64,000 nt of DNA from a virus (lineage: Duplodnaviria; Caudoviricetes). Under the pieces are notes generated by a model, which had not been told where the DNA came from, did not search any database, and saw only the letters and a list, made by a program, of their open reading frames with translations. The stretch lies in IMG/VR virus record IMGVR_UViG_3300042567_001420, one strand, 5' to 3'. Positions 3,930 to 30,536 of the stretch are shown here, piece by piece. The stretch's first letter is position 1; each line of letters begins with the position of its first letter. Both the position numbers and the translations under genes were made by a program.

Positions 3930-4382
3930 TCATTTCTTTTTGCCAGCTAATCTTGATCGCTCTAAACTTCTAATCTTAGGAATCATTCTTACGACGAGTC
4001 CTTTTTGTCCTGCTAAAATATTAGATGCTTGTTTTTCAATTCTGTCTTTTTCAGCAGCAGATAATTGTTTTTTATCTCTGCCTTTTAAAAGTTTTCTAAT
4101 TACCATTTGTCTTGCAGCAACTTTTGATCTACGATTAATAACATCTGTAGATGATGCTCGTCTTAATTTTAATCTGCGAGCTTGTCCGACTGCCGTTTTT
4201 CTGGATTTAAATTTTTGCGATTTTTGCATTCTTGCTGTTGCAGAAAGAGCTTCATCTAATCCATTTTCAAATTCGTCATCTGCATATAGATGCTCGATGT
4301 CTTCCCATTGTAGTTCTTCCACAATAGAATCTAATTCTTCTTCCGTTATATCGGTACTTAAAAATTCTTGAAAAGTAATCAT
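3930..4382 (-). CDS. Hypothetical basic protein, possible head-internal protein
   Basis: Start MITFQEFL at 4382 overlaps the Dps stop (ATGA); acidic N-terminus, very basic C-terminal part. Confidence 0.6.
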   Translation of the reverse strand: MITFQEFLSTDITEEELDSIVEELQWEDIEHLYADDEFENGLDEALSATARMQKSQKFKSRKTAVGQARRLKLRRASSTDVINRRSKVAARQMVIRKLLKGRDKKQLSAAEKDRIEKQASNILAGQKGLVVRMIPKIRSLERSRLAGKKK

Positions 4383-4813
4383 TTTAGTGTTGCTTTTAGC
4401 ATCCAAGCATGTTTCTGATGAGCAGTAATTCTATCTTGCAAGAAATTTGCCAAACCTAATTCTGATGCATTGTCTGCATCTCTATAAGAAAGCATTAATG
4501 AAGCAAGTACCATGCTGTTTGTGTCCATTAAACTTTTAATCATTTGTAACGCTGGCATTACAGTTTCTTCTTCAGATACAACTGTAAGGTCTAGAAGTTG
4601 TTTTAATGATGTAGGTGTATATGCATCAATTTGTCGAATCTGTTCACCTAGCAAATCTATAGATCCATATACTTCTTCATAGATATCACCTAACAAATCG
4701 TGATACTGCGAAAAATCAGGTCCCTCTACATTCCAATGAAATGTATGAGCCTTGAAGTACATTGTAAACACATCTGCCAATGTCTTTTGTAAAGATAATT
4801 GCAACGATTCCAT
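4379..4813 (-). CDS. dps: Dps family ferritin-like protein
   Basis: KAHTFHWNVEG, HDLLGDIYEE, EQIRQI, HQKHAWML signatures. Confidence 0.9.
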   Translation of the reverse strand: MESLQLSLQKTLADVFTMYFKAHTFHWNVEGPDFSQYHDLLGDIYEEVYGSIDLLGEQIRQIDAYTPTSLKQLLDLTVVSEEETVMPALQMIKSLMDTNSMVLASLMLSYRDADNASELGLANFLQDRITAHQKHAWMLKATLK

Positions 4814-4814
4814 A

Positions 4815-6761
4815 TTATTCTGCCTGACTAGCTTTCTTCATCATTTTATATGCGGATGACTTTTGTCCTGCAATCTTTGCCTGTGCTGCATGGACTTCTT
4901 GTCTATCAGCATCATGATATGTCTTAAATGCTTGATTAGCGGGATCTTGTATAAAGGATTTAAATGATACCATTCCAACTGGTTTGTCTGGATGACCTTG
5001 ACCAGCAATGGGTTTATCTATGCCATGAAATACATCTTTGTTGTCTGTAAAGTTGACATCTCTCTCACTTGCTTCTTTGAGTTTCATTTTGTTTTCCTCA
5101 TCTTTATCTTTTTGACTCTGTCTAATTGAAGATAAAGTCTTTGGTTGTTCTTTAGTAGAAGTATCTATCATTTTAGCACGATGCTTAACGTATTTTACTT
5201 TGCCTGTTATTGGATCTTTGCTTGGAACATATTCAAAATCTGCAGACGCAACATCTTCTTCTACTCCCCTTGCACCAATAACTGTTACTGTTGAGCCTGG
5301 ATCATTTGCATATGTGCCATCTCTATGCATATTAAGGTCGGACATGGTTTTCAAATGTGTTTGCATATACAGTAAATCCTTATCTGCAACACCTAATACA
5401 TTCATTGTATCGTGTGCAATAGCAAACTTCATATTAAAGTCATGAATCATTTGATCATCCGCAAAGCCTTTGGCTTTTGCTTCCTTTTCAATTTCAAGAT
5501 ATTGATCTGTTGCCATAATTGCTTGCAGAACATATTTCTTTGGAAGTTGGACTCTGGTAATTAATTCTTTTAATTGAGCAGATGCACCTGGGCACGTATG
5601 AAGAAATGATGTGGTATAACCATCGAATGTAAGTTCCATTCTACTGTTGCTCATCTCAGCCAATTGTTCTTTGGATAGGAACAATGCAGGAATTTGTTTT
5701 CCTTCAACATAAGCAGGCTTATATGCGCCGTTGTATTTAATTTTTTCTTTTTCCTGAGGTCCGTCAGAAAATTTCTTGAAGTTTTGTAACTTCGAAGTCT
5801 TAGATAATTTGGGGCGTAGATCAACGTGTAGTCCTGTGCCTGCTTTTTCGCCAAATATTTCTTGTATATCTTTTAGCCAGTGTTTAGATGTATCGCCGCT
5901 TTTTTGTTGTATCGTAACGTATGAAGATCCTCTGTATACGATCTCGCCCCGTGTTCCGTTAGTTGATTCAACTATATCGCCTAATTTAAAAATCTCGCCT
6001 GCTATGTAAGACTCTCTTACTGGCACGCACATTCCTTTATCTTTGCTGAATACTTCACCAACGGGACAAACAATCTTCATTTCAGGAGTCATACCGATGG
6101 CATGGTCTGTGCCTTCTGGTGTGCCCCAATCAAATCTATTTGGATTTTCGTAATCTTCTTTAACCGCTTTGATGTGGTTGACAATTTCCTCCGCATGAGG
6201 ATGTAATGCCTTAGGAAGACCAGATTTAAATTGCTTCATTTCGCCTGCTCTGGCATGAGCACGCATCTTAGTTCCGGACATTCCCTCTACGCCTTCTGCG
6301 TCAGGGTCTCTTTGTCCTGCAGAAACTACTTTAATTGATTTAAAATTGTAGTGGCCGTGTTTACCGGCAACATTATTATACTTGTTTAATGTCTTGTGAT
6401 ACTCATCCACACGATCAGAACCAGCAACCATAACCAAATGTTTATATCCTTGACTATGTATTTTAGATGCAGCGTGAAGGAAAGTAGGAGATTCTTTAGA
6501 AGCACCTGATACTTTGGTGCCTTCTGGTGCCACGTGTTTTAGATATCCTACCTTGGCCTTGGCGGGAACAGGATCTTTTGATGTACCTTCAGAATGAGAT
6601 GCAACAATATGTGCAGTAGCATTGTGCTCATCCGCAACAGATTTGACTTTATTAATGAGTTTTTCGTGTCCAACGGTAGGCGGATTGAATCGCCCAAAGG
6701 CAAAAGCTGCTGTTTTTTCAGGCGCTTCTGTGATGAATTGTTTAAAGTCCATGTGGTCCAT
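4815..6761 (-). CDS. Cytidyltransferase-like (HIGH superfamily) nucleotidyltransferase with long C-terminal extension
   Basis: FGRFNPPTVGHEKL, VAGSDRV and MSGTKMR motifs in the first ~200 aa. Confidence 0.8.
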   Translation of the reverse strand: MDHMDFKQFITEAPEKTAAFAFGRFNPPTVGHEKLINKVKSVADEHNATAHIVASHSEGTSKDPVPAKAKVGYLKHVAPEGTKVSGASKESPTFLHAASKIHSQGYKHLVMVAGSDRVDEYHKTLNKYNNVAGKHGHYNFKSIKVVSAGQRDPDAEGVEGMSGTKMRAHARAGEMKQFKSGLPKALHPHAEEIVNHIKAVKEDYENPNRFDWGTPEGTDHAIGMTPEMKIVCPVGEVFSKDKGMCVPVRESYIAGEIFKLGDIVESTNGTRGEIVYRGSSYVTIQQKSGDTSKHWLKDIQEIFGEKAGTGLHVDLRPKLSKTSKLQNFKKFSDGPQEKEKIKYNGAYKPAYVEGKQIPALFLSKEQLAEMSNSRMELTFDGYTTSFLHTCPGASAQLKELITRVQLPKKYVLQAIMATDQYLEIEKEAKAKGFADDQMIHDFNMKFAIAHDTMNVLGVADKDLLYMQTHLKTMSDLNMHRDGTYANDPGSTVTVIGARGVEEDVASADFEYVPSKDPITGKVKYVKHRAKMIDTSTKEQPKTLSSIRQSQKDKDEENKMKLKEASERDVNFTDNKDVFHGIDKPIAGQGHPDKPVGMVSFKSFIQDPANQAFKTYHDADRQEVHAAQAKIAGQKSSAYKMMKKASQAE

Positions 6762-6781
6762 TAGAATATAGTTGATACTTA

Positions 6782-6880
6782 TTATTTATAAAATAAGGAT
6801 GTTTGGTTTATAGGAGGTATCGGATAAGGATGTTTTGGTTTAGGGGGATTTTTTTTAGGTTTGTGTTTGAACCAGCTCAT
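6782..6880 (-). CDS. Small Pro/Lys-rich protein (32 aa)
   Basis: MSWFKHKPKKNPPKPKHPYPIPPINQTSLFYK, GGAGG Shine-Dalgarno. Confidence 0.45.
   Translation of the reverse strand: MSWFKHKPKKNPPKPKHPYPIPPINQTSLFYK
6783..6790 (-). promoter_or_regulatory. T4-type late promoter TATAAATA
   Basis: Exact consensus upstream of 6761. Confidence 0.7.
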
Positions 6881-6973
6881 GTTGCCTCCGTTTTATCCAA
6901 AGTTAACCAAAAGTTATAGACAATCTATTGACATGATGTTATTATATGCTATGAGGCTCAGTGATAAGAAGCA

Positions 6974-7663
6974 TTAACAATTCCACTTTCTCAGTGCTTT
7001 GTTGATTCTTGAATCAGGGTCTCTAGCAGTCTCTGCAGATGTCAATCGCTTCTTCATTCCACCCATACGAGCACAAAAAGATTTTCTTCTATTAGCTGCT
7101 TTGCTTCCTGGCTTTAATTTAGATGGTTTAGTAGTTACGGCCATTTGTAACTTTGAACCGGGATTTTCTCTACGATATGAAGCAACACCCTTAGCATTTA
7201 ATCCGCCTTCAGGATTCTTACCCTCTTTGCGTTGCCAAGCAGCGACTTCAAATAGGTCTTCATCTGAAATATCTTTAAGGTCTTCCCAAATCACATCCGA
7301 ATCAACATTGTTTTCTTTTGCAATATCTTCGATCACATCTTCAATTAGATCAAACAGTTCTTCGGCTTCTTCAACTTTAACGCAATCATCTTTGCCGTTT
7401 GTTGTACCACTGTAACGATATCCATCCCAGCATGCTTTACCGTCGGCACCCTTGGCTTTGTCTTTTTTGGCTTCTGCCACGGTTTCTGACGCATTTTTAA
7501 AGTCTTGTTTGGATGGCGCGCCATCACTTCCAGGTGCACGCATACGTTCTCCGGATCCAGATTTGATTCGTTTGCGTTTTGCGTGAATGTTATCCCATAA
7601 CCCGGGACGATTGCCTTCGTCAATGGATTGAATTTCTTCTATTAGTTGTTTAAATGTTTTCAT
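6974..7663 (-). CDS. Hypothetical modular protein, possible head-internal protein
   Basis: MKTFKQLIEE start; GLWDNIHAKR, CWDGY and AWQRKEGKNPEGGLN modules. Confidence 0.7.
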   Translation of the reverse strand: MKTFKQLIEEIQSIDEGNRPGLWDNIHAKRKRIKSGSGERMRAPGSDGAPSKQDFKNASETVAEAKKDKAKGADGKACWDGYRYSGTTNGKDDCVKVEEAEELFDLIEDVIEDIAKENNVDSDVIWEDLKDISDEDLFEVAAWQRKEGKNPEGGLNAKGVASYRRENPGSKLQMAVTTKPSKLKPGSKAANRRKSFCARMGGMKKRLTSAETARDPDSRINKALRKWNC

Positions 7664-7669
7664 TTTAAT

Positions 7670-8104
7670 TTACTTTGTAGCTACATTAATTGCAGGACCT
7701 TTGCGTTCTGCATTAGGATCTTCTCTGCGTTTTCTTGCGGCGGCTTTGGCGCGCCCTTCTTTTCCCAAACTATGCGCTTGACTTTGCGGTAAACATTTTG
7801 GTTTACCTTCAGTATCATCTTCTCTCGCACAATCTCCTCGTATTTTACCATCAGGTCCAAAACGAACCCATTTGTCTTTAAACCATTTGTTTAAATTTTC
7901 ATCTACTTGTACGGTAGTATCTGCGATTGTATCTTCATTTTTACTAGAATTTCCCCAATTTGCCGCACCAACTTTGCGGCATTTAACTAACGCTCCGCTA
8001 GCATATGCCGAAGGCCAAACGCTATAGCGGCTTTTGACTTTATAATAGCAAGCATCTTTATTTTCATAAAGCAATTCTTCTCTTACTTGTTTAAATGTTT
8101 TCAT
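7670..8104 (-). CDS. Hypothetical protein, possible head-internal protein
   Basis: MKTFKQVREE start; WPSAYASG and KWFKDKW modules. Confidence 0.7.
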   Translation of the reverse strand: MKTFKQVREELLYENKDACYYKVKSRYSVWPSAYASGALVKCRKVGAANWGNSSKNEDTIADTTVQVDENLNKWFKDKWVRFGPDGKIRGDCAREDDTEGKPKCLPQSQAHSLGKEGRAKAAARKRREDPNAERKGPAINVATK

Positions 8105-9270
8105 CTTGGTCTCGCTGCAAAATTGGCTGCACTAAATTCTTCTCTATCTACTAGCTTTGTTGGTCTGTTGTTTAATACTGCAACATGACCTTCGGGTTTA
8201 ACTTTTTTACCATCAATGCTATGATGGAATTTATAATCCGCATTTGACATTGTTTGTACTAAAACATTTTTTGCATTTTGCAAATGTTTATGTATATCCA
8301 ACGTCTTTTTAAATGAATCTTTATTGGTATCAATATGATCCAACTTTTCATTCATATCCGCAGCTTTGTTTTGTTTGGCTTTATCGGTTTTAACTTTATC
8401 AATGCCTTTTTGCAGAGAACTTTGTAGATGTTTCTTATAGCCTTCTACCGATGGCTTTGAGGTGTCTCTCACAGTTGAATTAATATAAGTCTTTAATGAT
8501 TCATCGTGACCTTCGAGATGATCGTAATTGGGTAAATCATTGTGTGCTTCAACGGCCTTGGCCATGTGAGAATGATATTCTTGTTGAGCATCTGGGGTAT
8601 AATGTGCAGTCTTAGGATCAAATTTGGTATCAATTACATGAACATCTGGATGTGAATTAAATTTAGAAGTGTCAGTATTATATTCTGCCTTCATGTTCTC
8701 AAGTGTATCTCCGCGATATGCTGTGTGAACTGCTACACCAAATTTTGCATCTTTGATCTTTTGGCCTTCTTCACTGCCCTTTTTAGCAGAGTATGTAATT
8801 GTGTTAGGCTTAAAATGATAGGATCCGCCAGAATCGGATACATCTTTATCCGACTTATTATACATTACGTCACCTTGAAACACCCCTTCGTTAGGTGTTA
8901 CTTTAGGCAAGTGGTATAGCGCTGCTTTTAATTTGGCAACAAGTCCAGGTGAATGACCGTGGTTCTTTTCAATATCAGATTCTGTAAAATTTAATTTGGG
9001 ATTCTTGTTGAATGCAGATTTAGATGCAACAAAGAATCTAGGAAACTCCGGGTGAGTGCCAAACACAATACTAGGCGAGCCATCATACTTTGTGGATAAA
9101 GATACCTTTGATCTTTTGCCTAACAAAGCATTGTGTGTTTCGTTTAAAGTATTGAATACGTGCTTAAAGCCTTCTTCCCCTGCATTAATAGGGTGATCTT
9201 CTGCGTGTTCGAGGTGTGTTAACTTTTCCTCGTTCGCAGACTCAACTAAGTATGTGCTAAATGATAACAT
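8101..9270 (-). CDS. Ligase-fold (covalent nucleotidyltransferase-like) protein
   Basis: KYDG, FVASKS, FQGD, PEGHV and TKLV occur in the order of ligase motifs I, Ia, III, IV, V. Confidence 0.55.
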   Translation of the reverse strand: MLSFSTYLVESANEEKLTHLEHAEDHPINAGEEGFKHVFNTLNETHNALLGKRSKVSLSTKYDGSPSIVFGTHPEFPRFFVASKSAFNKNPKLNFTESDIEKNHGHSPGLVAKLKAALYHLPKVTPNEGVFQGDVMYNKSDKDVSDSGGSYHFKPNTITYSAKKGSEEGQKIKDAKFGVAVHTAYRGDTLENMKAEYNTDTSKFNSHPDVHVIDTKFDPKTAHYTPDAQQEYHSHMAKAVEAHNDLPNYDHLEGHDESLKTYINSTVRDTSKPSVEGYKKHLQSSLQKGIDKVKTDKAKQNKAADMNEKLDHIDTNKDSFKKTLDIHKHLQNAKNVLVQTMSNADYKFHHSIDGKKVKPEGHVAVLNNRPTKLVDREEFSAANFAARPR

Positions 9271-10670
9271 TAGAAACCACTCGCAGGTGTAAAATTATAC
9301 ATTTGGCTCGAATATGCCCCATGCGAATTTGGTTTTGTTGCTATTCGAACTAGCATCGTAGGCTTACCGTCTTTTTCAACCCTATGTATGGACACGGCTG
9401 ATCCAGATCGATGTATTACAAATCTTGTATCTTTATGTTTTAATATAGCACCCAGTGGCGACTCACTGCCATGTTTAACTACTGCATGGATTTTCTTAAG
9501 GTCTTTTCCGTGTCCGGTTGCTTTGATCCAAGTCATACCTTTATCTGATACTAAATTATTATGCAACCATTGTCCTATATGTTGATGGCCCTTTGCCCCC
9601 TTTGACATAAGGTGTTCTAATTGTTTTTGTAATTCACGCGCAGTTTCCTCATTATTTTCTTTAAAATCTACATTCATTTTTTTGCCAAGTGCATTAACTA
9701 CCGGTTTGCCTGTTTTAGGATCCGGATCGGTAACTCTAGCGTGTATAGAATCACCTGTTTTAGATCTAGCTGGCAAATGATCCATTTTAAATTTTTTAAG
9801 TATTTTTTCTTTACCTGCTTTGGCAATTTCGTTTGCTTCAGATTTTCGTGTTGCCGGCCCACCTGATAAAAATTCATCTTGTCCGGCAACTCCGGGATTT
9901 TTTGCTGTAATATTACCAGAAGTTTTACCGGTAGACTTTGCGGACACTCCTAAATAAGACTGTTCTACGTCTGAATGTGTTAACTCTAAAGTTACATCTG
10001 ATGGATTTTCTTGACCATCGGTATGAACGCCTTTTGTAAATCTACCAATATCCCCATCTTTGGATGTTCTACCCACACGAGTTATTGTTGCTCCAGGATG
10101 ATGTTCTTCCACATGCTTAATTACGGCAGCTGCCATTGCTTTACCGTGAGCTGCTCTTATTGCTACTTGATTTTGATCTTGGCCTTTAGTAATTTTATTT
10201 AATTCATCATCATGCTGTTTTAATTCTGTTTTATGTTCTTTCGAACCAAATGTTCCTGTTTGGGAATGTCTATGATTTACTAATTCTTTATATAAATGAA
10301 TCTCAGCAATTTTTCCTGCAGGATCATTATCTAGTTTAGTTGGAGGTTCTCCGCTACTAGGAGTCACCGTCTGCATTTTTTCTTGAATGAATTCTACAGA
10401 TTCATTCAGCTTATCTTGTTGAACTTCTTTTCCTGCATGCATTAATTCTTCTTTACTTAAATTAGAAGTATGCGGAAAGGCAACAATCTTTGTGATTGCG
10501 TCTAAACTTTTATTGTGAAATATTGCGGTTTTGTGTTCCCCGTTTCGAAAAATATGAACGTCTACATCATGTCCATCATCTGTGGAATAACTATGATACG
10601 GGGTTAGATTTGAGAAATCATGAGATTCGATAAGCGCACTATACGCCTTGAATGTGATTAATTCTTGCAT
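9270..10670 (-). CDS. Hypothetical protein with possible PD-(D/E)xK nuclease-like domain
   Basis: SDVTL...YLGVSAK spacing. Confidence 0.45.
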   Translation of the reverse strand: MQELITFKAYSALIESHDFSNLTPYHSYSTDDGHDVDVHIFRNGEHKTAIFHNKSLDAITKIVAFPHTSNLSKEELMHAGKEVQQDKLNESVEFIQEKMQTVTPSSGEPPTKLDNDPAGKIAEIHLYKELVNHRHSQTGTFGSKEHKTELKQHDDELNKITKGQDQNQVAIRAAHGKAMAAAVIKHVEEHHPGATITRVGRTSKDGDIGRFTKGVHTDGQENPSDVTLELTHSDVEQSYLGVSAKSTGKTSGNITAKNPGVAGQDEFLSGGPATRKSEANEIAKAGKEKILKKFKMDHLPARSKTGDSIHARVTDPDPKTGKPVVNALGKKMNVDFKENNEETARELQKQLEHLMSKGAKGHQHIGQWLHNNLVSDKGMTWIKATGHGKDLKKIHAVVKHGSESPLGAILKHKDTRFVIHRSGSAVSIHRVEKDGKPTMLVRIATKPNSHGAYSSQMYNFTPASGF

Positions 10671-10699
10671 TTTGAGTCCATTGAAACGAATTATACTTA

Positions 10700-10707
10700 T
10701 ATTTATA
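10700..10707 (-). promoter_or_regulatory. T4-type late promoter TATAAATA
   Basis: Exact consensus upstream of 10670. Confidence 0.7.
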
Positions 10708-10764
10708 TAAATTAAAGTTGCGGAACTCGTAGGAAACCGGCGATTACTGCCGGCTTTAGTATAA

Positions 10765-11337
10765 TTAGATGTTAGTATTCCATGCTTTAATTACAGGATG
10801 CAGTACATCATCAGTATAATCCATCTTCATTGTGTTAACAATCGCCAGAATAATCTGAATATTGCCTTTGACATAACCCTTTTTAGAGTTAATACGATCT
10901 ACGCTAGGACGGAATGGGTTTCGATTGCCCTTTGTGCCCAGTTCCATACTAAAAGGAAGTTTGGTGATAGCACATTTACCTTCGCATGCGTCGAACTTGC
11001 TCTGAATATATTGCGGAGTAAGATTAAACGACATCTTACGACCTTTTTTCTCATGAGCAGCAACTCTATTCTTAAGAGCAACGTATTCAGTAATACCGAA
11101 TTTTTCAGGCGATGCTTTCTTTGCTCTATTCGCAATACGAGTTTTGACTCTAATTGCTGCTTTTTGCTCAGGAGTCAAGCTCTCTTTTTTCTTTTGATAA
11201 TCCCATTTACCAAATGCTGTAGCAATGGCATCCTCATCTGCAGTAAGTGGTCTGGCATCTAAACGTCTGATCTGATGTAGACGTTTTGCTTCTTTGCGAA
11301 CTTTGGGATCTTCAAAATTATACATAACCATCCACAT
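10765..11337 (-). CDS. HNH/His-Me-finger-like putative homing endonuclease
   Basis: CAITKLPF...PSVDRINSKKGYVKGNIQI...VNTMK. Confidence 0.65.
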   Translation of the reverse strand: MWMVMYNFEDPKVRKEAKRLHQIRRLDARPLTADEDAIATAFGKWDYQKKKESLTPEQKAAIRVKTRIANRAKKASPEKFGITEYVALKNRVAAHEKKGRKMSFNLTPQYIQSKFDACEGKCAITKLPFSMELGTKGNRNPFRPSVDRINSKKGYVKGNIQIILAIVNTMKMDYTDDVLHPVIKAWNTNI

Positions 11338-11608
11338 TACTTGCGTGATTAGGTTGATTGGAATTGCCGTAATCTACTTTATGAATTAGTTTTTCTGCAA
11401 TATGTCCGTTCATGCTGTCTTTTGCAATTTGATAAAATTCTTTAGTAGTAATTTCTCGGGTTGATACAATGGTCTCGCCTAAACATTTTTGGTCTAGTTC
11501 TTGAGCTTCTTGCATAACTACTGTGTCTTCAGCGTGTTCTGCTGACTCACACTCAATAGCATAGTAATGACGAAATGTAGTAATAGTTTCAACGATGAAT
11601 AGTGGCAT
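11318..11608 (-). CDS. Hypothetical protein
   Basis: 96-aa ORF in the operon direction. Confidence 0.55.
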   Translation of the reverse strand: MPLFIVETITTFRHYYAIECESAEHAEDTVVMQEAQELDQKCLGETIVSTREITTKEFYQIAKDSMNGHIAEKLIHKVDYGNSNQPNHASNVDGYV

Positions 11609-29417: not shown

Positions 29418-30536
29418 ATGGAATTTACAGCTGGATTTACGTTAGTTGGTGGTGGGACTTTTGTTGCGCCTCCACCGCCTCCCCCTGATCCATATCTATG
29501 GGCATGGGGCGACAATGACTTTGGTCGATTGGGATTAGGTAATACTACAGATTATTCAAGTCCAAAACAAGTTGGTGCACTAACTACTTGGTCAAGTATT
29601 TCCGGTGGTGAATTGCACAGCGCGGCCATTAAAACAGATGGTACAATATGGTCTTGGGGCAAAAATGAGTACGGCCAACTGGGCCTAGGCAATACTACAA
29701 ATATATCTAGTCCAGTACAAGTTGGAGCCCTAACTACTTGGTTAAATATTGCTGCGGGTGAGGAACACGCCCTGGCCGTTAAAACAGATGGTACCTTGTG
29801 GTCATGGGGTAGAGCTTCGAACGGTAGATTGGGTCTAGGCAATACTATAAATAGATCTAGTCCAGTACAAGTTGGTGCATTAACTACTTGGTCAAGTATT
29901 AGTGCGGGCGGTGGTCACAGCTTAGCTGTCAAAACAGATGGTACCATGTGGTCTTGGGGAAGCGGTGGCCAAGGCAAATTAGGATTAGGGGACACTACGG
30001 CTAGATCTAGTCCAGTACAGGTTGGTGCGTTAAACACTTGGTCAAGTGTTGCTGGAGGCAATTATCACAGTTTAGCAATTAAAACAGATGGTACCATGTG
30101 GTCATGGGGGTACAATTTCACTTATGGCCTGCTAGGGTTAGGAGATACTAACGATAGATCTAGTCCAGTACAGATTGGAGCTTTAACTACCTGGTCAAGT
30201 ATTTCTGCAGGTTATTTTCATAGCATGGCAGTCAAAACAGATGGTACCATGTGGGCATGGGGTTTCAATAGCGGTCGATTAGGTGTAGGCGATACTGCAA
30301 ACAGATCAAGTCCAGTACAGGTTGGAGCATTAACTACTTGGTTAAATGTTAGTGCAGGTAGGTATCACAGCTTGGCCATTAAAACAGATGGTACATTATG
30401 GTCGTGGGGGGAGAATAATGGCGGCATTTTGGGATTAGGGGACACTACGGCTAGATCTAGTCCAGTACAGGTTGGTGCGTTAAACACTTGGGCAAGTGTT
30501 GCTGCAGGCCATATACACAGCATGGCAATCGGTTAA
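29418..30536 (+). CDS. RCC1/BLIP-II repeat beta-propeller protein
   Basis: Seven ~50-aa repeats: AIKTDGT.W.WG.N..G.LGLG....SSPVQVGALTTW. Confidence 0.9.
   Translation: MEFTAGFTLVGGGTFVAPPPPPPDPYLWAWGDNDFGRLGLGNTTDYSSPKQVGALTTWSSISGGELHSAAIKTDGTIWSWGKNEYGQLGLGNTTNISSPVQVGALTTWLNIAAGEEHALAVKTDGTLWSWGRASNGRLGLGNTINRSSPVQVGALTTWSSISAGGGHSLAVKTDGTMWSWGSGGQGKLGLGDTTARSSPVQVGALNTWSSVAGGNYHSLAIKTDGTMWSWGYNFTYGLLGLGDTNDRSSPVQIGALTTWSSISAGYFHSMAVKTDGTMWAWGFNSGRLGVGDTANRSSPVQVGALTTWLNVSAGRYHSLAIKTDGTLWSWGENNGGILGLGDTTARSSPVQVGALNTWASVAAGHIHSMAIG
29982..30491. repeat. Identical 60-nt direct repeat (29982-30041, 30432-30491)
   Basis: Direct comparison, offset 450 nt. Confidence 0.9.

Follow-up and report, generated by a model that had tools for sequence, protein, structure and literature searches.

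Why cyanomyoviruses have no recognizable DNA or RNA ligase is a question that dates from 2005 to 2010 (PMC1079782, PMC2984593). A gene of the DUF6267 family (PF19782) that bears on it lies on IMG/VR virus record IMGVR_UViG_3300042567_001420, a stretch of 64,000 nucleotides from an uncultured freshwater T4-like phage (Duplodnaviria; Caudoviricetes), which at its full length is called the window here. The family comprises 2121 representative clusters (exhaustive search, E <= 0.001), is nearly confined to T4-like phages of aquatic habitats, hundreds of cyanophage isolates among them, and its annotation is always "hypothetical." What kind of protein does this gene encode, and at what point of an infection could the product act? 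On balance, we lean toward the view that DUF6267 represents a phage-specific, unrecognized branch of the covalent nucleotidyltransferases, whose member in the window would be made late, packed into the head, injected together with a partner nucleotidyltransferase carrying a HIGH motif, and would act on nucleic-acid ends.

Motifs and predicted fold of the DUF6267 protein

The gene is a minus-strand open reading frame with an ATG start that encodes 389 residues. A Pfam scan matched the protein over its full length to PF19782 (326 bits against a gathering cutoff of 27; E = 5.1e-97), with residues 18 to 386 aligned to positions 2 to 374 of the 376 in the profile. It also matches phrog_455, over the profile's N-terminal half; C-terminally, this PHROG is a cytidylyltransferase. 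A literature search for DUF6267 or "cytitidyltransferase" in the paper library searched found no paper mentioning either. When the gene was compared with relatives at 94% and 89% nucleotide identity, the synonymous and nonsynonymous codon differences numbered 56:10 and 98:19, respectively. This excess of synonymous changes, together with the near-invariant motifs described below, indicates that the gene is real and under purifying selection and that its motifs are not chance strings. A nucleotide search of phage records with positions 4800 to 11400 of the window gave no near match. Positions 6900 to 10800 are present almost word for word in 24 freshwater or lake metagenome runs from 2016 to 2024 (the runs listed are all DNA), and the source is thus a recurrent lake phage.

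The preliminary description of this DNA had pointed to five motifs in the order found in ATP-dependent ligases (KYDG, FVASKS, FQGD, PEGHV, and TKLV). Their coordinates and order were confirmed, and they are near-invariant in an alignment of 86 homologs (32 to 66% identity) drawn from the exhaustive family search, on which all conservation counts given here are based (Table 1). In the structural model described below, K61 of motif I, the predicted nucleotidyl-accepting lysine, stands at the end of a strand (residues 57 to 61), and the motif I loop precedes the strand formed by residues 67 to 72. Motifs I and Ia are 23 residues apart, close to the 20 residues that separate K35 from R55 in T4 Rnl2, and once the insert at residues 226 to 342 is discounted, the spacing of the whole set is close to that of T4 Rnl2 (K35, R55, E99, F119, E204, and K225). 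Motifs III, IIIa, IV, and V fit the canon (an acidic residue, an aromatic residue, EG...K, and KxK) in order, strands, and conservation, but the residues deviate from it in motifs III, IV, and V. The model shows EGHV and KLV as an adjacent hairpin spanning residues 361 to 374. Residues H182, T183, and Y185 are also conserved, and the family-specific N-terminal motif HLEHAED is kept in short-form homologs.

Table 1. Features of the DUF6267 gene and its surroundings, in coordinates of the window (conservation counts out of 86 homologs)
Feature	Position	Strand	Remarks
DUF6267 gene, 389 aa	8101..9270	-	ATG start; candidate ligase-fold covalent nucleotidyltransferase
Leader MLSFSTYLVE, residues 1-10	9241..9270	-	resembles the T4 capsid-targeting sequence; ends L-V-E (L-x-E); predicted prohead-protease cleavage site
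HLEHAED, residues 19-25	9196..9216	-	family-specific N-terminal motif; H19 82, H22 85, E24 77, D25 73
Motif I, KYDG, residues 61-64	9079..9090	-	K61 85, D63 83, G64 83
Motif Ia-like, FFVASKS, residues 79-85	9016..9036	-	F80 78, V81 84, K84 84
Motif III, FQGD, residues 131-134	8869..8880	-	strand 129-138; Q132 80, G133 81, D134 82
Motif IIIa candidate, FKPNTITY	8791..8814	-	aromatic residue F153 or Y160; F153 74, P155 80, N156 81, Y160 80
Helical insert, residues 226-342	8245..8595	-	helices in the model; between motifs IIIa and IV
Motif IV, PEGHV, residues 359-363	8182..8196	-	strand 361-366; E360 82, G361 84, V363 78
Motif V, TKLVDR, residues 371-376	8143..8160	-	strand 369-374; K372 82, R376 83
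Late promoter motif TATAAATA	10700..10707	-	T4 type; 30 nt upstream of the operon's first gene
Second late promoter motif TATAAATA	6783..6790	-	heads the 648-aa protein gene and the Dps-like gene
648-aa protein gene	4815..6761	-	leader MDHMDFKQFITE; N-terminal HIGH-motif nucleotidyltransferase (NMNAT/PPAT-like) and C-terminal modules
Dps-like ferritin-fold gene	4379..4813	-	matches NCBIfam Dps models (E = 1.6e-12); coupled to the 648-aa protein gene
229-aa basic protein gene (DUF6321)	6974..7663	-	leader MKTFKQLIEE
144-aa protein gene	7670..8104	-	downstream of the DUF6267 gene, coupled; weak DUF5872 match; leader MKTFKQVREE
466-aa protein gene	9270..10670	-	upstream of the DUF6267 gene, translationally coupled; HinP1I/MspI-like restriction-endonuclease fold; looser leader MQELITFKAYSALIE
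HNH/endonuclease VII-like gene	10765..11337	-	phrog_3322
RCC1 beta-propeller gene	29418..30536	+	seven repeats; E = 2.5e-88

An AlphaFold2 model built from the 86-sequence alignment (pLDDT 95.2, pTM 0.92) is disordered only in residues 1 to 12 (pLDDT <50). When this model was aligned to about 48,000 PDB representatives, ligases held the first 8 ranks and the majority of the first 31, with 145 to 200 residues aligned. RNA ligases led, with NgrRnl (5cot) at Z 9.7 over 184 residues, T4 Rnl2 (1s68) at 8.4, T4 Rnl1 at 8.1, fungal Trl1 at 8.0, and REL1 at 7.7; they were followed by about twenty DNA ligases at Z 6 to 7.5 and then by the vaccinia capping enzyme at Z 5.6, and all remaining rows were small helical bundles that matched the insert. 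Foldseek against the PDB placed DNA and RNA ligases first, if weakly (E = 0.06). In BFVD, the first matches outside DUF6267 were annotated viral RNA ligases (Atu_ph07, prob 0.96; phiQ1, prob 0.97), and in a language-model feature search from which DUF6267 itself was set aside, the first named family was PF09414 (RNA_ligase) with a score of 0.75, which is a lead only. The structure prediction and Foldseek comparison that had been proposed as a check, with a non-ligase fold as the outcome that would speak against a ligase, thus returned RNA and DNA ligases at the top in three structure libraries.

That the protein has no OB domain, also suggested earlier, is right for the model: what follows the helical insert is just the hairpin of motifs IV and V and a single helix. 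We saw no beta-barrel after motif V that could stand for an OB fold or bear motif VI, the chain ending 13 residues past R376, and no counterpart of the Rnl2 C-terminal domain. The place of the OB domain is occupied in the model by a bundle of helix 23 to 49 and the helices at residues 226 to 342; helical-bundle matches span residues 25 to 348. Short-form homologs of about 290 aa from cyanophages have kept every motif and lost most of the helical insert, and from this we take the nucleotidyltransferase core to be the conserved unit. Judged by the model, it is very likely that the DUF6267 protein has the nucleotidyltransferase fold of the ligase superfamily. Since a ligase-like model coincides with the lack of any profile link to known ligases, the family can be read as an unrecognized branch of the lysine-nucleotidyl-transferase superfamily. 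Catalytic activity on K61 is likely.

Among known enzymes, the Rnl2/Rnl5-type RNA ligases (T4 Rnl2, 1s68/2hvq; NgrRnl, 5cot; T. brucei REL1, 1xdn) are the best structural matches. Their motifs I, Ia, III, IIIa, IV, and V follow in the same order on equivalent strands, with similar spacing when the insert is left aside. A short conserved strand motif precedes motif I in both Rnl2 (LENH) and DUF6267 (HLEH), and Rnl2 likewise has no OB domain. DUF6267 differs from these ligases, however, in having no detectable sequence-profile similarity to them, in the Asp of motif III and the K...R of motif V, in a capsid-targeting leader, and in a linkage to the HIGH-motif nucleotidyltransferase. The additional module of DUF6267 is a bundle of helices, about 120 residues long, that lies between motifs IIIa and IV; Rnl2 has a C-terminal domain (PF18043) instead, and NgrRnl an N-terminal one. 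With the ATP-dependent DNA ligases (T4 gp30, 6dt1; Chlorella virus, 2q2t; archaeal and human enzymes), whose nucleotidyltransferase domain matches at Z 6 to 7.5 and which were top Foldseek matches in the PDB, DUF6267 shares the KxDG lysine motif, and most of the DUF6267 phages examined are without gp30. Unlike these DNA ligases, it has no OB domain, motif VI, or PF01068 match, and their scores are below those of the RNA ligases.

Late promoter motifs, leader, and partner nucleotidyltransferase

The DUF6267 gene belongs to a four-gene operon running from 10670 to 6974, headed by the late promoter motif at 10700 to 10707, which directly follows a terminator-like hairpin. Late promoter motifs also head the cassette in Methylophilales phage Melnitz, and variant forms do so in S-SZBM1 and ACG-2014e. 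The packaging-like leader noted before is real. E10, after which the prohead protease is predicted to cleave, is conserved in 72 of the 86 homologs, and the leader motif occurs in 175 of the 248 family members that could be scored. Of the 116 open reading frames in the window, five have a start resembling the T4 capsid-targeting sequence, and four of these are contiguous genes at 4815 to 9270.

In T4, the first ten residues of IPIII, the capsid-targeting sequence, suffice to load proteins into the head, even foreign enzymes, and the propeptide is then removed (PMC9026906, PMC3012670). The cassette has several features in common with Alt and the internal proteins of T4: the N-terminal leader is about ten residues long and ends in (L/I)-x-E, there is a late promoter motif, and diverse cargo genes that share nothing but the leader are clustered (PMC9026906, PMC3012670). 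The cargo is different: IPI to IPIII and an ADP-ribosyltransferase in T4, and proteins with a ligase-like, a restriction-endonuclease-like, and an NMNAT-like fold here. It also differs from the T4 case that we infer the packaging of the window's DUF6267 protein from its leader. A gp21-type protease gene (PF03420) is present in all four near-complete relatives. Homologs of the partner nucleotidyltransferase have been detected in the virions of S-SZBM1, S-SCSM1, and S-CREM2, and S-CBWM1 has been cited as well (PMC9146016, PMC9602691, PMC10665884); the homologs of S-SZBM1 and S-SCSM1 begin with the leaders MRFRQFIIEA and MKSFLQFLKEA. The leaderless DUF6267 homologs S-SZBM1_141 and S-SCSM1_257, by contrast, are not listed as virion proteins. 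The leader thus tracks virion detection where both are known, by which packaging of the leader-bearing protein of the window is supported, though not proven. That this protein is packed into the head and injected with its nucleotidyltransferase partner is somewhat likely.

We also considered DUF6267 as a universal virion protein and rejected this, the leaderless and short forms being unlisted in three published virion proteomes. Two of the proteins of about 290 aa, S-SCSM1_257 and S-CREM2 gp87, are encoded away from the nucleotidyltransferase gene, and S-SCSM1_257 is without a leader. In S-SCSM1, the nine genes ORF89 to ORF97 lie between those for gp41 and gp61, and the annotation records seven of their products as virion proteins detected by mass spectrometry. 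This gap in the "replication module" of S-SCSM1 therefore appears to be a head-cargo cassette.

The partner in the window is the N-terminal domain, of about 200 residues, in the 648-aa protein, assigned through PF01467, phrog_3041/395, and a PDB profile search. It bears HxGH and SxTxxR signatures and matches PPAT, NMNAT, FMN adenylyltransferase, ATP sulfurylase, and MJ0951 weakly. The best PDB profile match was to MJ0951/UPF0348 (E = 2e-5), mainly through the shared SxTxxR motif; we take this to be the TmcAL tRNA-acetylating family. In many relatives, the C-terminal portion of the 648-aa protein, about 440 residues, is a separate gene after the Dps-like gene. The linkage with DUF6267 is tight. 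A HIGH-motif nucleotidyltransferase is fused to DUF6267, in either order, in 43 of the 48 representatives longer than 550 aa, and in 40 of the 42 related loci that have enough flanking sequence, its gene lies downstream on the same strand, no more than 3 kb away. Atlas clusters confirmed this fusion and included one with Cu/Zn superoxide dismutase (SOD); LysM and a Pol-beta nucleotidyltransferase are further fusion partners of DUF6267. A predicted complex between residues 13 to 389 of the DUF6267 protein and the HIGH-motif domain scored 0.08 against a mark of 0.32, which speaks neither for nor against binding.

Other genes of the cassette

The model of the 466-aa protein (pLDDT 80.7) resembles HinP1I (Foldseek E = 1.3e-3, prob 1.00; VIA Z 6.3 over 219 residues) and MspI (VIA Z 6.0). 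It contains invariant residues S224-D225 and S243-x-K245, an SD-X17-SxK pattern that we assume to be a form of the HinP1I/MspI catalytic motif. The protein may be an injected nuclease. Its gene was considered as a constant third member of the module and was rejected, being adjacent in only 2 of the 66 related loci, both from the closest relatives; the proteins upstream of DUF6267 in Melnitz and in cyanophages have no detectable homology to it.

The 144-aa and 229-aa proteins are small and basic, and their MKTFKQ leaders agree at 8 of 10 residues; according to PHROG profiles, homologs of both are fused into larger proteins. The Dps-like gene is often co-conserved with the pair of DUF6267 and nucleotidyltransferase, as seen from the synteny of related loci, and this gene and the Cu/Zn SOD fusions together hint at a theme of oxidative damage or DNA protection. 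The HNH/endonuclease VII-like gene stands just upstream of the late cassette, and its homologs are upstream in the closest relatives. The genes for gp43, UvsX, and gp41 are found at 23.5 to 29.3 kb of the window. The cassette is thus downstream of gp41, as in the Kyanoviridae, in which it lies between gp41 and gp61. The RCC1 gene is beside the DNA polymerase gene, with TATAAATA before it, and is unusual for a phage. The large tRNA array reported near the DUF6267 gene was verified and consists of 24 tRNA genes.

Proposed mechanism and alternatives

How might such a protein work? The core of DUF6267 is similar to the adenylyltransferase domain of RNA ligases of the Rnl2/Rnl5 type. We propose that Lys61 of KYDG would take up a nucleotide, probably AMP, and hand it on to a 5'-phosphate end, after which the break would be sealed. 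The helical bundle would replace the OB or C-terminal domain of known ligases. The protein would be made late, its leader would be cut after Glu10 by a gp21-type prohead protease, and the mature enzyme would be packed in the head and enter the next cell with the DNA and its constant HIGH-motif (NMNAT-like) partner, so that it could act on nucleic-acid ends as soon as the infection begins. On the structural grounds provided by the model, RNA-type substrates are somewhat more likely than DNA. The sealing of RNA-type ends is a reasonable, if tentative, possibility, and repair after anticodon nucleases makes up about half of the likelihood that we assign to it. DNA nick sealing comes lower, and nucleotidyl transfer without ligation or dead cargo takes what is left.

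Several findings count against this proposal. Motif III has Asp instead of Glu, motif IV is without its trailing Lys, and motif V has K372...R376 where the canon is KxK. Seven of the 86 homologs have a degenerate motif I (e.g., KHEG, RLDG, or KYDS), in some cases with a degraded motif IV; these may be inactivated paralogs. The structural scores are moderate (best Z 9.7 at an rmsd of about 4 Å), the search tool itself cautioning that best Z scores of 7 to 8 are common for models without a true match, and the equivalences with ligase residues are drawn from motif order, spacing, and strand position, not from superposition. Pfam and NCBIfam scans and PDB phmmer and hmmsearch runs reached no ligase family, and a Pfam scan of the 389-aa protein up to E = 1 gave no match to the Rnl2 family, PF01068, or an OB domain. 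Comparison by hhalign with T4 Rnl2 alone and with a profile of 21 Rnl2 sequences gave probabilities below 1%, a weak negative given the narrowness of that profile (at least 55% identity). The closest near-complete IMG/VR relative (65% identity) has a canonical ATP-dependent DNA ligase in addition to DUF6267. With regard to packaging, the gp21-type protease gene is not in the window, where a tblastn search with T4 proteins of the head and of packaging gave no match, and the leaderless S-SZBM1_141 and S-SCSM1_257 and the short-form S-CREM2 gp87 are the proteins unlisted in the three virion proteomes, whose coverage of DUF6267 includes no leader-bearing form. The ligase identity put forward in the preliminary description therefore stands in part: fold and a conserved motif lysine with its partner residues speak for it, but sequence profiles place the protein in no ligase family.

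Among the alternatives, the one that survives best, although we consider it rather unlikely, is that Kyanoviridae-type T4-like phages have their "missing" DNA ligase in DUF6267. The protein would seal nicks in phage DNA at Okazaki fragments, at recombination or packaging intermediates, or at sites of damage in the incoming genome, possibly with NAD+ from the NMNAT-like partner, and packaging would be a lineage-specific addition. Reviews report no homologs of g30, rnlA, or pseT in cyanomyoviruses and allow for distant ones (PMC2984593, PMC1079782). We found no PF01068, PF01653, or PF09414 in Melnitz, ACG-2014e, S-CREM2, or S-SZBM1, and no PF01068, the only family searched for, in S-SCSM1. All of these phages harbor DUF6267, as PF19782 in the cyanophages ACG-2014e, S-CREM2, S-SZBM1, and S-SCSM1 and as a homolog detected by tblastn in Melnitz. 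PF01068 was also not found in three of the four near-complete IMG/VR relatives, and T4 shows the reverse pattern, with canonical ligases present and DUF6267 absent. Seven of eight relatives' genomes that bear DUF6267 are without any canonical DNA ligase. The occurrence of DUF6267 in relatives without canonical ligases makes it a candidate for the missing ligase. The location of the gene between gp41 and gp61, neighbors that act on DNA (the HinP1I-like nuclease fold and the Dps-like protein), and the existence of leaderless short forms not flagged as virion proteins are consistent with this. However, the complementary distribution is largely one of clade versus clade and thus represents few independent events, and the relative with both genes does not follow it. 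RNA ligases rank above DNA ligases in the wide structural search and in BFVD, and late promoter motifs at the head of the cassette, even in relatives, are a poor fit for a replicative ligase. The model also has no OB domain, which to our knowledge every known DNA ligase has and needs.

The structural ranking that argues against a DNA ligase is what recommends an RNA repair ligase, injected or made early, that would reseal host or phage tRNAs or other RNAs cut by anticodon nucleases or RNA-targeting defenses. The nearest structures are Rnl2, Rnl5, Rnl1, Trl1, REL1, and viral RNA ligases. A helical accessory module in place of the OB domain, as in the DUF6267 model, is typical of RNA ligases (Rnl1, Rnl2, and Trl1). 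The phage devotes 24 genes to tRNAs, and injection would suit counter-defense, as with the T4 internal proteins (PMC3012670). A precedent is T4 Rnl1 with Pnkp, the healing-and-sealing pair directed against PrrC: it too has a phage-encoded ligase fold (Z 8.1) with a helical accessory domain, and a counter-defense role is plausible for both systems. In contrast to T4, the cassette yielded no Pnkp-type partner; DUF6267 has the HIGH-motif nucleotidyltransferase as its partner and is predicted to be expressed late, its product probably being injected. T4 expresses rnlA and pseT ahead of the late period. The 2',3'-cyclic-phosphate and 5'-OH ends that anticodon nucleases leave cannot be joined by a classical ligase. 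A scan of cassette proteins found neither a polynucleotide kinase/phosphatase nor any other enzyme for end healing, cyanomyoviruses are reported to be without pseT and rnlA (PMC1079782), and the constant HIGH-motif partner has no known place in healing and sealing. The sole tie to the tRNA array is a proximity of about 3.5 kb. Since no end-healing partner was found, the tRNA repair suggested in the preliminary description is unsupported, and we regard this explanation as unlikely.

It is more improbable still that no strands are joined at all, the nucleotide being passed to another acceptor (a cap-like 5' modification, a protective 5'-adenylation of DNA or RNA ends, a protein, or a small molecule), possibly from a dinucleotide made by the fused HIGH-motif nucleotidyltransferase, or the protein being catalytically dead head cargo. 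That DUF6267 is so tightly and often fused to a second nucleotidyltransferase hints at a nucleotide pathway of two steps, for which ordinary ligases have no need, and the deviations in motifs III and V, the additional invariant HxxHxED motif, the capping enzymes among the structural matches (Z 5.6), and the fusions to unrelated cargo domains (Cu/Zn SOD, LysM, and the Pol-beta nucleotidyltransferase) point in the same direction. Ligases are nevertheless far better structural matches than capping enzymes, and the fusions may only mean that several cargo domains travel under one capsid-targeting leader. Dead cargo is at odds with the strong conservation of all nucleotide-binding motifs across homologs of 30% identity.

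A speculative extension, to which we give little weight, is that the head carries DUF6267 together with its NMNAT-like partner as a self-sufficient kit for ligation. The ligase would be precharged or would use NAD+, and the partner would be injected with it and regenerate the cofactor. If this is true, breaks in the incoming genome or in RNA could be sealed at once, even in cells in which abortive-infection defenses have depleted NAD+ and thereby stopped the NAD+-dependent LigA of the host. The leaderless forms would then be the long-sought ligase of cyanomyoviruses.

The assignment to the ligase superfamily offers a testable function for an unknown gene that is among the most common in myoviruses of marine and fresh waters. 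Enzymologists might also take an interest in a compact ligase that has a new accessory module. If the proposal as a whole is true, the known head cargo of T4-type phages widens from inhibitors and an ADP-ribosyltransferase to enzymes that join nucleic acids and metabolize nucleotides.

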